Source: Escherichia phage teqdroes. From it: a stretch of 64,000 nucleotides of DNA. The stretch's first letter is position 1; the number at the start of each line of letters is the position of its first letter. The stretch is from the sequence record NC_054932.1; one strand, given 5' to 3'. Below the pieces are notes generated by a model. The model was given only the letters and a program-made list of their open reading frames with translations. It searched no databases and was not told the DNA's origin. A program made the translations under genes and the position numbers. Shown here in pieces: positions 18,224 through 38,768 of this stretch.

Positions 18224-19426
18224 ATGAAAGTATGTATTTTTATGGCTCGAGGTCTTGAAGGTTGTGGTGTAACTAAATTTTCTCTTGAGCAACGTGATTG
18301 GTTTATTAAGAATGGTCATGAAGTAACTTTGGTTTATGCTAAAGATAAATCATTTACTCGTAATTGCGCGCATGATTATAAATCATTTTCAATTCCGGTT
18401 TTATTGGCAAAAGAATATGATAAAACACTTAAGCTGGTAAATGATTGTGATATTCTAATTATCAATTCAGTTCCTGCTACTTCGGTTGAAGAAGACACTA
18501 TTAATAACTATAAAAAAATTATTGATAACATTAAACCTTCTGTTCGTGTTGTAGTTTATCAACATGACCATTCTTCTCTTTCTTTGCGCCGAAATTTGGG
18601 ATTAGAAGAAACTGTTCGTCGAGCTGATGTTATTTTTAGCCATTCTGATAATGGTGATTTTAATAAAGTTCTGATGAAAGAATGGTATCCTGAAACAGTT
18701 TCTCTGTTTGATGATATTGAAGAAGCACCGACAGTATATAACTTTCAGCCTCCTATGGATATTGCGAAGGTTCGGTCAACCTACTGGAAAGATGTTTCTG
18801 AAATTAACATGAATATCAACCGTTGGATTGGTCGTACGACTACATGGAAAGGTTTTTATCAGATGTTTGATTTTCATGAAAAACATCTTAAACCTGCAGG
18901 ACTAAGTACTATTATGGAAGGTCTGGAACGTTCTCCAGCATTCATTCCTATTAAAGAAAAAGGAATTCCATACGAGTATTATCGTCTTCATCAAGTAGAC
19001 CAAATTAAAATTGCTCCTAATTTACCAACGCAAATTCTCGATCGTTATGTAAATAGCGAAATGCTTGAACGTATGAGTAAATCCGGATTTGGTTATCAGT
19101 TGAGTAAGTTGGATAAAAAATATCTACAGCGCTCTTTAGAATATACTCATCTCGAGCTTGGTGCATGTGGAACAATTCCGGTATTTTGGAAATCTACTGG
19201 CGAAAATTTAAAATTCCGTGTTGATAATACTCCTTTGACCTCGCATGATAGCGGTATCATTTGGTTTGATGAAAATGATATGGAATCAACATTTGAACGT
19301 ATTAAAGAACTGTCATCTGACCGAACTCTTTATGACCGCGAACGCGAAAAAGCTTATGAATTTTTGTATCAGCATCAAGATTCAAGCTTCTGCTTTAAAG
19401 AACAGTTTGACATTATTACAAAATAA
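18224..19426 (+). CDS. agt: DNA alpha-glucosyltransferase
   Basis: 400 aa; N-terminus CIFMARGLEGCGVTKFS and length match T4 alpha-gt as recalled. Confidence 0.9.
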   Translation: MKVCIFMARGLEGCGVTKFSLEQRDWFIKNGHEVTLVYAKDKSFTRNCAHDYKSFSIPVLLAKEYDKTLKLVNDCDILIINSVPATSVEEDTINNYKKIIDNIKPSVRVVVYQHDHSSLSLRRNLGLEETVRRADVIFSHSDNGDFNKVLMKEWYPETVSLFDDIEEAPTVYNFQPPMDIAKVRSTYWKDVSEINMNINRWIGRTTTWKGFYQMFDFHEKHLKPAGLSTIMEGLERSPAFIPIKEKGIPYEYYRLHQVDQIKIAPNLPTQILDRYVNSEMLERMSKSGFGYQLSKLDKKYLQRSLEYTHLELGACGTIPVFWKSTGENLKFRVDNTPLTSHDSGIIWFDENDMESTFERIKELSSDRTLYDREREKAYEFLYQHQDSSFCFKEQFDIITK

Positions 19427-30325: not shown

Positions 30326-31066
30326 ATGATTAGTGACTCTATGACAGTTGAAGAAATCCGTCTTCATTTGGGGCTTGCATTAAAAGAAAAAGATTTCGTA
30401 GTTGATAAAACTGGTGTTAAAACTATTGAAATTATTGGCGCATCATTTGTAGCAGATGAACCGTTTATTTTTGGTGCTCTTAATGATGAATACATTCAGC
30501 GCGAACTTGAATGGTATAAATCTAAGAGCTTGTTTGTTAAAGATATTCCAGGTGAAACACCAAAGATTTGGCAGCAGGTAGCATCTTCTAAAGGCGAAAT
30601 TAACTCGAATTATGGTTGGGCTATTTGGTCAGAAGATAACTATGCCCAGTATGATATGTGTTTAGCTGAACTTGGTCAAAATCCTGATTCTCGACGTGGT
30701 ATCATGATTTATACTCGTCCATCCATGCAATTTGACTACAATAAAGATGGTATGTCAGATTTCATGTGTACTAATACAGTACAGTACCTGATTCGTGATA
30801 AGAAAGTCAATGCAGTAGTAAGCATGCGCTCAAATGACGTGGTCTTCGGATTCCGTAATGATTATGCATGGCAAAAATACGTATTAGATAAATTAGTATC
30901 TGATTTGAATGCCGGCGATTCATCTCGTCAGTATAAAGCAGGTTCTATTATATGGAATGTCGGAAGTCTTCATGTATATTCTCGTCATTTTTACTTGGTT
31001 GATCATTGGTGGAATACTGGCGAAACTCATATTGTGAAAAAAGACTATAAAGGTGAGTGGAAATGA
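30326..31066 (+). CDS. 42: dCMP hydroxymethylase gp42
   Basis: 246 aa; thymidylate-synthase-like fold motifs; matches T4 gp42 length. Confidence 0.92.
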   Translation: MISDSMTVEEIRLHLGLALKEKDFVVDKTGVKTIEIIGASFVADEPFIFGALNDEYIQRELEWYKSKSLFVKDIPGETPKIWQQVASSKGEINSNYGWAIWSEDNYAQYDMCLAELGQNPDSRRGIMIYTRPSMQFDYNKDGMSDFMCTNTVQYLIRDKKVNAVVSMRSNDVVFGFRNDYAWQKYVLDKLVSDLNAGDSSRQYKAGSIIWNVGSLHVYSRHFYLVDHWWNTGETHIVKKDYKGEWK

Positions 31067-31905
31067 TTCAATTCGTAATTCCAAGTTATCAGCGTGTCAG
31101 GGCAGTTTCTGCCCTTGATATGTTTCCGACTGATTATGAACCGCATATTGTAGTGCGTGAACATGAAGAAAAAGCTTATCATGACGCTTATGGGTCTAGA
31201 GCTAAAATTATAACTATTCCTGATGATGTAAACGGAATTGCCGGTACTCGTAAAGCAATTACCGATATATATGCAGGTCAACGAATCTGGATGATTGACG
31301 ATGATACTACTATTCGTATGAGTTCAATGCGAAAAAGAGATGACCGTCGTTGTGTAGATAAAGTCAATCAATTAACCCGTGAACAGTTCTATGAATTGAT
31401 TCAATACGTTGAAGATGCCATGGATTGCGGGTATTATCATGGTCATGCTCGCCTACCAATTTTTAAAATTACTTCATCTTGGGGTAATTATCGTGAAAAT
31501 TCATATGGATTCACGAATACATGGTATGACCTTGGAAAACTTACGACAGAACAAATTGGGTATGGAAAAATTGATTTGTGCGAAGATATGTATGCATTTC
31601 TCAATTTAATTAATCAAGGTTATCCGCATTTGGCCTTGTTCAAATATCTGGTTGTATCTGGAAAAGCACAAGCTCCTGGCGGGTGCAGTTCAATTCGTAG
31701 TAATTCTAAACATAATAGAGCGCTTGAGCAAATCAATAGAGAGTTTCCAGAGCAAGCTCGTTGGAAAACTTCTAATATTGAAAAACGAAAATCGTTGGGT
31801 GAAGAAGACGAACCATTAAAGGTTCTTCGCATGTGCGTTTCACGTAAAGAAAAATCAGAAGCATTTCATAAGTTTAATGCTATTCATCCAATAGCAGTTG
31901 ATTAA
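31063..31905 (+). CDS. putative GT-A-fold glycosyltransferase occupying the beta-gt slot
   Basis: N-terminal FVIPSYQR and IWMIDDD (DxD) motifs; sits between 42 and uvsX; does not resemble T4 beta-gt as I recall it. Confidence 0.6.
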   Translation: MIQFVIPSYQRVRAVSALDMFPTDYEPHIVVREHEEKAYHDAYGSRAKIITIPDDVNGIAGTRKAITDIYAGQRIWMIDDDTTIRMSSMRKRDDRRCVDKVNQLTREQFYELIQYVEDAMDCGYYHGHARLPIFKITSSWGNYRENSYGFTNTWYDLGKLTTEQIGYGKIDLCEDMYAFLNLINQGYPHLALFKYLVVSGKAQAPGGCSSIRSNSKHNRALEQINREFPEQARWKTSNIEKRKSLGEEDEPLKVLRMCVSRKEKSEAFHKFNAIHPIAVD

Positions 31906-31929
31906 TGCCTAAATTTATTGTGTTATAAT
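31901..31929 (+). promoter_or_regulatory. promoter with extended -10 TGTTATAAT
   Basis: TGTTATAAT at 31921-31929; weak -35. Confidence 0.4.
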
Positions 31930-31960
31930 TACTCTATCTTTAACCAGTGAGGAAAATATA

Positions 31961-32017
31961 ATGATGCCTATGGAAAAAATGAATGTCTATTGCAGATTTA
32001 AAATCCCGTTTGATTAA
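31961..32017 (+). CDS. possible 18-aa upstream ORF overlapping the uvsX start
   Basis: ATGATGCCTATG after strong GAGGAAA; out of frame with uvsX. Confidence 0.25.
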   Translation: MMPMEKMNVYCRFKIPFD

Positions 32018-33164
32018 AGCTTCCACTTCTAAAATGACTGCTGAACTGACTACATCTAAATTCTTTAATGAAAAGGATGTAATTCGTACAAAAATTCCAA
32101 TGCTTAATATTGCTATTTCTGGTGCGATTGATGGCGGTATGCAGTCTGGTTTAACTATTTTCGCAGGGCCTTCTAAACACTTTAAATCAAATATGTCTTT
32201 GACTATGGTTGCGGCATATTTGAACAAATATCCTGACGCGGTTTGTCTATTCTATGATAGCGAATTTGGTATTACTCCAGCTTATTTGCGATCCATGGGA
32301 GTTGACCCGGAACGAGTAATTCATACGCCAATCCAGTCAGTTGAACAGCTGAAAATTGATATGGTGAATCAGCTTGAAGCTATTGAGCGCGGTGAAAAAG
32401 TTATTGTATTCATCGACTCAATCGGTAATATGGCTTCTAAGAAAGAAACTGAAGATGCCTTGAATGAAAAATCTGTGGCAGATATGACTCGTGCTAAATC
32501 GCTGAAGTCATTATTCCGTATTGTTACTCCTTACTTTAGCATTAAAAATATTCCATGCGTTGCGGTTAACCATACAATTGAAACAATTGAAATGTTTAGT
32601 AAAACCGTGATGACAGGTGGTACAGGCGTAATGTATTCGGCTGATACTGTATTCATTATCGGTAAACGCCAGATTAAAGATGGTTCTGATCTTCAGGGGT
32701 ATCAATTTGTTCTAAATGTAGAAAAATCTCGTACCGTTAAAGAAAAAAGTAAATTCTTTATTGATGTTAAATTTGACGGTGGCATCGATCCTTATTCTGG
32801 ATTGTTAGATATGGCTCTTGAATTAGGATTTGTAGTAAAACCTAAAAATGGTTGGTATGCTCGTGAATTTCTTGATGAAGAAACCGGCGAGATGATTCGC
32901 GAAGAAAAATCTTGGCGTGCAAAAGATACCAACTGCACTACATTCTGGGGTCCTTTATTTAAGCATCAACCATTCCGTGATGCTATTAAGCGTGCTTATC
33001 AGTTAGGTGCTATTGATAGTAATGAAATTGTTGAAGCGGAAGTTGATGAATTAATTAACTTAAAGGTTGAAAAATTTAAATCTCCAGAAAGTAAAAGTAA
33101 ATCAGCTGCTGATTTAGAAACTGACCTAGATCAGCTAAGTGATATGGAAGAATTTAATGAATAA
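31983..33164 (+). CDS. uvsX: RecA-like recombinase UvsX
   Basis: 393 aa; Walker A GPSKHFKS and strong overall match to T4 UvsX. Confidence 0.92.
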   Translation: MSIADLKSRLIKASTSKMTAELTTSKFFNEKDVIRTKIPMLNIAISGAIDGGMQSGLTIFAGPSKHFKSNMSLTMVAAYLNKYPDAVCLFYDSEFGITPAYLRSMGVDPERVIHTPIQSVEQLKIDMVNQLEAIERGEKVIVFIDSIGNMASKKETEDALNEKSVADMTRAKSLKSLFRIVTPYFSIKNIPCVAVNHTIETIEMFSKTVMTGGTGVMYSADTVFIIGKRQIKDGSDLQGYQFVLNVEKSRTVKEKSKFFIDVKFDGGIDPYSGLLDMALELGFVVKPKNGWYAREFLDEETGEMIREEKSWRAKDTNCTTFWGPLFKHQPFRDAIKRAYQLGAIDSNEIVEAEVDELINLKVEKFKSPESKSKSAADLETDLDQLSDMEEFNE

Positions 33165-37981: not shown

Positions 37982-38178
37982 ATCAACCCAACTAAAGCAA
38001 ATGCTAAATCTACAAATGTATCAAGAGTAACTACTGGAATATTAACACCATGAGCAATAGCAATTGGTGATAAAACAAAATTCCAGAGTAAAATTCCTAT
38101 CATAGCAGAAATAGTAAAAGCTATACGTTTTTTATTACCTTTTATGGCATTAACAAGTGCCATTAATTTTTGTACCAT
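37978..38178 (-). CDS. antisense small membrane protein, 66 aa
   Basis: ORF track; AAGGAGG 4 nt before ATG on minus strand; two hydrophobic helices. Confidence 0.4.
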   Translation of the reverse strand: MVQKLMALVNAIKGNKKRIAFTISAMIGILLWNFVLSPIAIAHGVNIPVVTLDTFVDLAFALVGLI

Positions 38179-38190
38179 GTGTCCTCCTTA

Positions 38191-38215
38191 TTGCTTTATA
38201 TATTTATTGTATAAT
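38191..38215 (+). promoter_or_regulatory. MotA-dependent middle promoter for gene 56
   Basis: MotA box TTGCTTTA, 11 bp, TATAAT. Confidence 0.5.
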
Positions 38216-38249
38216 TAATCTACTAACCCATGAATTGAAAGGAAAAATA

Positions 38250-38768
38250 ATGGCATACTTTAATGAATGTTCACAACTGATTGAAGGCGCTGATAAAGCT
38301 CAAAATGAATACTGGGATATTCTCGGTGATGAAAAAGACCCGCTGCAGGTTATGCTTGATATGCAGAAATCTTTGCAGGTTCGTTTAGCTAAAGATAAAC
38401 CTGAATATAACCGTCATCCTGATGATTTGGCTACTGCCGGTGAAGTTGTTGATTGGCTACGTAATCAGAAAGACTATATTGATGATGAATTCCGTGAACT
38501 TCTGACTTCTCTTGGTGGTATGAGCAATGGCGAAAAAGATGCATCTGCTGTATGGAAACCTTGGAAGTCGCAACATGGTGAACGCCGTGAAACTCTGATT
38601 ACTGATTTGTCTCCGCAAGACCAGCTGGAAATTAAATTTGAAATGATTGATATTCTTCATTTCGTTCTGAATATGTTCCAAGGTCTTGGTCTTACTGCTG
38701 AAGAAATCTTTAAACTTTATTATCTGAAAAATGCAGAAAATTTCGCACGTCAAGACAGAGGTTATTAA
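38250..38768 (+). CDS. 56: dCTP pyrophosphatase gp56 (MazG-like)
   Basis: 172 aa from internal ATG; the ORF-track start at 38157 lies inside the promoter. Confidence 0.85.
   Translation: MAYFNECSQLIEGADKAQNEYWDILGDEKDPLQVMLDMQKSLQVRLAKDKPEYNRHPDDLATAGEVVDWLRNQKDYIDDEFRELLTSLGGMSNGEKDASAVWKPWKSQHGERRETLITDLSPQDQLEIKFEMIDILHFVLNMFQGLGLTAEEIFKLYYLKNAENFARQDRGY

Follow-up and report, generated by a model that had tools for sequence, protein, structure and literature searches.

In T4, the slot downstream of gene 42 holds a 351-aa beta-glucosyltransferase gene (beta-gt), followed by segA. In the window analysed here, a stretch of 64,000 nucleotides from Escherichia phage teqdroes (NC_054932.1), the gene in this slot encodes a protein of 280 aa, which raises the question of what enzyme it is and which sugars it would place on the 5hmC of the phage DNA. 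The features that bear on this question are the following:

30326..31066, + strand: gene 42, dCMP hydroxymethylase; 96.7% amino acid identity to T4 gp42
31051..31066, + strand: translation start region of ba-gt, read from the sequence
31063..31905, + strand: ba-gt (also ggt or TAGT), assigned as a beta-glucosyl-HMC-alpha-glucosyltransferase; 280 aa, predicted GT-A fold
31983..33164, + strand: uvsX recombinase; 90% amino acid identity to T4 UvsX
18224..19426, + strand: alpha-gt, DNA alpha-glucosyltransferase; 400 aa, full-length match to PDB 1XV5, 1Y8Z and 1Y6F (E ~2e-257)
38250..38768, + strand: gene 56, dCTPase/dUTPase; 172/172 amino acids identical to the syntenic protein of phage Solly

The gene between gene 42 and uvsX

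With an ATG at 31063 and a TAA stop at 31903-31905, the ba-gt open reading frame specifies a protein of 280 aa. The earliest possible in-frame start is a GTG at 31057; the ATG at 31063 was taken as the start because the N-terminus M-IQFVIPSY is common to every homologue and because this is the annotated start in T2, Solly, Geo and BGP. FVIPSYQR and IWMIDDD occupy residues 4-11 and 75-81 of the product, and the neighbouring genes match T4 gp42 and T4 UvsX at the identities given above; an earlier sequence-only reading, which had described a 280-aa protein with these two motifs between gene 42 and uvsX, was thus accurate on this point. The product of gene 42 also has weak matches to the thymidylate-synthase family, and uvsX, which lies outside the modification pathway, forms the downstream border of the slot.

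A Shine-Dalgarno-like site, AGGTGA, is present at 31051-31056, 6 nt 5' of the ba-gt ATG, and this ATG and the gene 42 stop codon TGA share bases in the tetranucleotide ATGA at 31063-31066. Annotations of T2, Solly, Geo and BGP show an identical 4-nt overlap, and the overlap together with the Shine-Dalgarno-like site suggests that gene 42 and ba-gt are probably translationally coupled. A promoter/terminator scan predicted 13 promoters around ba-gt, which is no different from the 8.7 +/- 2.5 expected in shuffled sequence. An extended -10-like element, TGTTATAAT, is found at about 31919-31927 in the intergenic region 5' of uvsX. Within the coding sequence, 36 nt from its beginning, is a perfect 7-bp GC-rich hairpin (AGGGCAG-TTT-CTGCCCT, window 31099-31115, +) that is followed by a T-rich stretch and is kept in T6; the private G13R substitution of the window (GGG to AGG) gives an A-T pair at the base of the stem instead of a G-T wobble. 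This hairpin could affect mRNA stability or translation.

Comparison of the window protein with T2 ba-gt revealed 98.2% identity over the full 280 aa (275/280 residues), and the same T2 protein is encoded by all three T2 records. The T6 protein is about 98% identical to that of the window and the T6 locus is 96% identical in nucleotides; the T2 and T6 alleles differ from the window protein by 5-6 residues; the private substitutions of the window relative to these alleles are G13R, Y40H/N and M69I. T2 and T6 ba-gt also resemble the window gene in length (280 aa), in slot, in the 4-nt overlap with gene 42 and in having an alpha-gt partner. The ba-gt of Escherichia phage vB_Eco_Solly (OY720021) shares 277/280 residues with the window protein and differs only by G13R, Y40H and M69I, and the 6 kb around the gene are 98.0% identical between the two phages. 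R13, H40 and I69 of the window differ from ten other close alleles, and none of them stands at a conserved position. The location between gene 42 and uvsX is common to the window, T6, T2, Solly, Geo and BGP.

Family models agree with these comparisons. PHROG 842, "beta-glucosyl-HMC-alpha-glucosyltransferase", matched the window protein with an E value of 1e-87, and the Pfam family PF20691 (TAGT) matched with 42.6 bits against a gathering threshold of 27.5, residues 3-207 aligning end to end with model positions 2-205 of 205; a search of NCBIfam found no model for the protein. The TAGT (TET-associated glycosyltransferase) family takes its name from members encoded beside TET/JBP-type dioxygenases. 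Unlike these name-giving members, the window has as its source of hydroxymethyl groups the thymidylate-synthase-like gp42, which acts on the nucleotide. In 1993, Winkler and Rueger reportedly cloned the T2 and T6 ba-gt genes and determined their sequences.

Altogether, we hold with high confidence that the gene is the T2/T6-type beta-alpha-glucosyltransferase (ba-gt, ggt, TAGT), which extends glucosylated 5hmC by a second glucose. Many Tequatrovirus genomes match the 24 kb around ba-gt with 96-98% identity, and with the ba-gt matches this makes the phage an ordinary T-even-type coliphage with a classical T2/T6 ba-gt. The enzyme is thus an already known one in its usual place, a result that is correct but ordinary and carries little weight as a discovery; its use lies in annotation, in that the gene should be called ba-gt/TAGT.

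Predicted fold and distinction from T4 beta-gt

The sequence-only reading had also held that the protein is unlike T4 beta-gt, and this is upheld by sequence, length and fold. No significant similarity between window ba-gt and T4 beta-gt was found, the best blastp match having an E value of 4.1. Both genes lie in the slot downstream of gene 42, and the two enzymes share UDP-glucose as the donor and the beta stereochemistry of the new bond; however, T4 beta-gt is a two-domain GT-B enzyme of 351 aa with 5hmC as its acceptor, whereas ba-gt is a single-domain GT-A protein of 280 aa with alpha-glucosyl-5hmC as its acceptor. The possibility that a T4-type beta-gt lies elsewhere in the 64 kb was rejected, as tblastn gave no match (E limit 1e-3). 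A match to T4 SegA was likewise not found by tblastn in the 64-kb window, and in contrast to T4, where segA follows beta-gt, there is no segA between ba-gt and uvsX (31906-31982). The arabinosyltransferase ORF003c of RB69, a 366-aa, GT-B-like protein, is described as having two Rossmann-like folds (PMC6024577), and by this description it is unlike the single-domain GT-A model of window ba-gt.

The first search for homologues returned 11 proteins and a profile search 50, and a 48-sequence alignment was built from both. AlphaFold run on the single sequence reached a pLDDT of only 38.6; the model used instead is that from the 48-sequence alignment, with a pLDDT of 92.4 and a pTM of 0.90. In this model ba-gt is a single Rossmann-like alpha/beta/alpha domain matching solved GT-A enzymes, and strand beta-4 (E74-78, RIWMI) is directly followed by D79-D80-D81, which places the DxD motif at its canonical GT-A position. 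Structure prediction had been proposed as a check that might reveal a non-glycosyltransferase fold, and the model agrees instead with the GT-A-like enzyme that had been suggested from the motifs. R11, R63 and D79-D80-D81 are invariant in 48/48 aligned TAGT members and all are present in the window protein, and D175, in a CED motif, is conserved in 42/48.

GT2-type GT-A enzymes (SpsA 1H7L, TarS 5TZE, TarP 6H1J and PcManGT 6YV7) have the same fold as ba-gt and share with it an N-terminal strand-loop P-x-Y motif and a DxD after beta-4, but their sequence identity to it is only 7-16%, and their acceptors are lipids, glycans or proteins rather than a sugar on duplex DNA. Pfam gave no GT2 match to ba-gt at E <= 1, and a PDB sequence search with ba-gt found no solved member of the family, the best hit (E 1.5) being an unrelated PNPOx-like protein. 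As a solved structure is lacking for the whole family, roles are given to individual residues by analogy with GT2 enzymes. The IPSYQR loop after beta-1 resembles the P-x-Y-N/R nucleotide-binding loop of those enzymes; together with the invariant DDD (79-81), this loop would hold UDP-glucose and a divalent metal ion, and D175, whose CED motif recalls the ED motif found in inverting GT2 enzymes, is a candidate catalytic base. From fold and conservation we infer that ba-gt is an inverting, metal-dependent GT-A enzyme. The GT-A fold and the distribution of TAGT have already been reported in a 2026 NAR paper, in which T6 TAGT was independently modelled as a member of the GT-A superfamily and a sister of GT2, alpha-GT and beta-GT being GT-B enzymes (PMC13216743).

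The distribution of the two genes bears on how the slot should be named. Window ba-gt DNA matches 473 phage records at 90-99% nucleotide identity, each over at least 80% of the gene length, and many of these annotate a beta-glucosyl-HMC-alpha-glucosyltransferase or beta-alpha-glucosyltransferase; in addition, the viral contigs of IMG/VR contain 5 ba-gt loci, all 97-99% identical and hence of little added diversity. T4-type beta-gt DNA, by contrast, occurs in just 29 phage records, which belong almost entirely to T4 and its closest relatives. Therefore T4 is the exception, and the "beta-gt slot" is a ba-gt slot in most relatives; the presence of ba-gt in this slot is not unusual, as it is the common occupant and T4-type beta-gt is rare. 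Previous work found alpha-gt and ba-gt together in 12/14 T4-like RB phages (Thomas et al., PMC6024577), and alpha-GT with beta-GT in 6/753 genomes (PMC13216743).

Expected sugars on the phage DNA

The window holds the full set of gp42, gp56, alpha-gt and ba-gt. An alpha-gt at 18224 had been noted previously, and the full-length match of 18224..19426 to 1XV5, the solved T4 DNA alpha-glucosyltransferase, confirms it (E 2e-257). The T2/T6 pathway is established (PMC6024577; PMC11078745; bioRxiv 10.64898/2026.02.25.707755), and in this phage it would run as follows. The hydroxymethylase gp42 would make hydroxymethyl-dCMP, gp56 would remove dCTP and so keep unmodified dCTP out of the phage DNA, and the phage polymerase would incorporate 5hmC. 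Alpha-gt would then place an alpha-linked glucose on about 75% of the 5hmC, and this would be the acceptor for ba-gt, which would transfer a second glucose from UDP-glucose, beta-1,6, onto alpha-glucosyl-5hmC to give gentiobiosyl-5hmC.

This second transfer is supported by genetic evidence in T6 (PMC11078745) and by chemical evidence in Solly-type phages (PMC13390438). T6 without ba-gt carries alpha-glucosyl-5hmC only and is more sensitive to the Brig1 glycosylase (PMC11078745), and its DNA is a substrate for the BapA deglucosylase (bioRxiv 10.64898/2026.02.25.707755). The role of the second sugar is protection from defences that read alpha-glucosyl-5hmC, such as Brig1. The phage is predicted to carry gentiobiosyl-5hmC, in which alpha-glucosyl-5hmC is extended by a beta-1,6 glucose, and this prediction bears on which host defences, and which enzymes used in the laboratory, could attack its DNA, among them Brig1, type IV restriction enzymes of the GmrSD/BrxU type and the BapA deglucosylase.

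The sequence-only reading had favoured a non-T4 sugar pattern, for instance a second sugar as in T2/T6, and had proposed comparison with the T2/T6 enzymes; the near-identity to both alleles supports it. Its further statement that the sugar cannot be read from the sequence proved too cautious, as the sugar can be deduced by homology from near-identical alleles in T2, T6 and Solly, phages with a measured DNA chemistry. How far the second glucosylation goes is a separate matter. T2 has about 5% gentiobiosyl-5hmC and T6 about 72% (PMC6024577); Geo, EL and BGP have 5hmC, glucosyl and gentiobiosyl forms at about 1:2:2, i.e., about 40% gentiobiosyl for Geo and BGP, and LC-MS of Solly and six other phages gave about one third 5hmC and two thirds gentiobiosyl-5hmC with only a trace of the monoglucosyl form (PMC13390438). 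A near-identical ba-gt thus yields about 5% in T2, 72% in T6 and 40% in Geo/BGP, so carrying the gene does not by itself determine the extent, and any extent given for this phage is a prediction. Most likely its DNA would be T6/Solly-like, with about one third bare 5hmC, about two thirds gentiobiosyl-5hmC and little mono-alpha-glucosyl-5hmC, as judged from the three differences from Solly at non-conserved positions, the retention of R11 and P251, the gp56 shared with Solly and the lack of a dam gene. With respect to the last point, no dam-like methyltransferase gene was found in the window, and the interval between the primase gene (gene 61) and gene 56 (37982-38249) is without one, unlike in T4, Geo and BGP, which have a dam-like gene there; it is by its lack of a dam gene that the Solly group is told apart from Geo, EL and BGP (PMC13390438).

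The same enzyme could instead work at a low, T2-like level, which would leave mostly mono-alpha-glucosyl-5hmC with a few percent gentiobiosyl-5hmC. The T2 protein is 98% identical to that of the window and still yields only about 5%, and Geo and BGP reach their intermediate 1:2:2 ratio with an allele about 97% identical; however, the window keeps R11, found in 48/48 family members, and P251, so that the R11H and P251S that distinguish T2 are absent, and with an allele 3 aa from that of Solly, Solly's gp56 and no dam it is unlike the Geo/BGP arrangement. We therefore consider a low level unlikely. A change of specificity, to another sugar donor or to direct action on 5hmC, is suggested by distant TAGT homologues in phages that have neither alpha-GT nor beta-GT, or that carry the gene beside beta-GT (PMC13216743; PMC6024577), so that the family is not limited to one reaction; but the window allele is 98-99% identical to those of phages in which gentiobiosyl-5hmC has been measured, and with alpha-gt also present such a change is very unlikely here.

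An inactive, decaying copy, as may occur in some laboratory T6 stocks, is likewise very unlikely. T6 records with an amber at codon 10 or an Asp deleted from DDD indicate that damage to the gene is apparently compatible with viability, but ba-gt in the window has its full length and an intact start, keeps all invariant residues and contains no frameshift or stop. A more speculative proposal, to which we give a low probability, is that G13R, Y40H and M69I alter how much second glucosylation takes place, or in which sequence context, and give a ratio unlike those of T2, T6, Solly and Geo. On a broader view, minor differences between ba-gt alleles (e.g., T2 R11H at an invariant arginine), and not gene content, may set the classical sugar-pattern differences among T-even phages.

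Alleles in T2, T6, Geo and BGP

All three GenBank T2 records (L002:3283-4125 (-), L006:3295-4137 (-) and L007:3286-4128 (-)) carry R11H, at the arginine that is invariant in 48/48 sequences, and P251S. The corresponding window codons are 31093-31095 (codon 11) and 31813-31815 (codon 251), and R11 and P251 are kept in the window and in ten other close alleles compared. R11H/P251S is a candidate cause of the low gentiobiosyl-5hmC content of T2 DNA (~5%) relative to T6 (~72%).

The T6 records carry two different lesions that, like the T2 substitutions, are absent from window ba-gt. In MH550421 (L001:3138-3980 (-)), codon 10 is changed from CAG to the amber codon TAG, and the protein is annotated from Met20 with 261 aa. 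In AP018814 and its RefSeq copy NC_054907 (L005:3135-3974 (-) and L015:635-1474 (-)), one GAT of GATGATGAT is missing, and this loss of 3 nt leaves DD in place of the invariant DDD; the protein with this deletion, YP_010067197.1 from NC_054907, is the T6 TAGT query and reference in PMC13216743. These lesions may be stock mutations or sequencing errors. The observations may help those who use the T2 and T6 records as wild type, and caution is advised with either T6 record.

The ba-gt genes of Geo and BGP (L013:8869-9711 (-) and L014:11199-12041 (+)) share I50V, M89I, R95K, C97R, V101I, A202S and Q203H relative to Solly, and these seven substitutions might contribute to the lower second glucosylation in those phages. 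Gene 56 also varies: two clearly distinct gp56 alleles are present among phages that are otherwise about 97% identical (window 38250-38768 (+), L013:587-1105 (-) and L004:18217-18735 (+)), and window gp56 is 71% identical to the Geo ORF annotated as dCTP pyrophosphatase. The split between these alleles, with the window and Solly on one side and Geo on the other, matches the reported division of the Durham phages into two groups by DNA modification.
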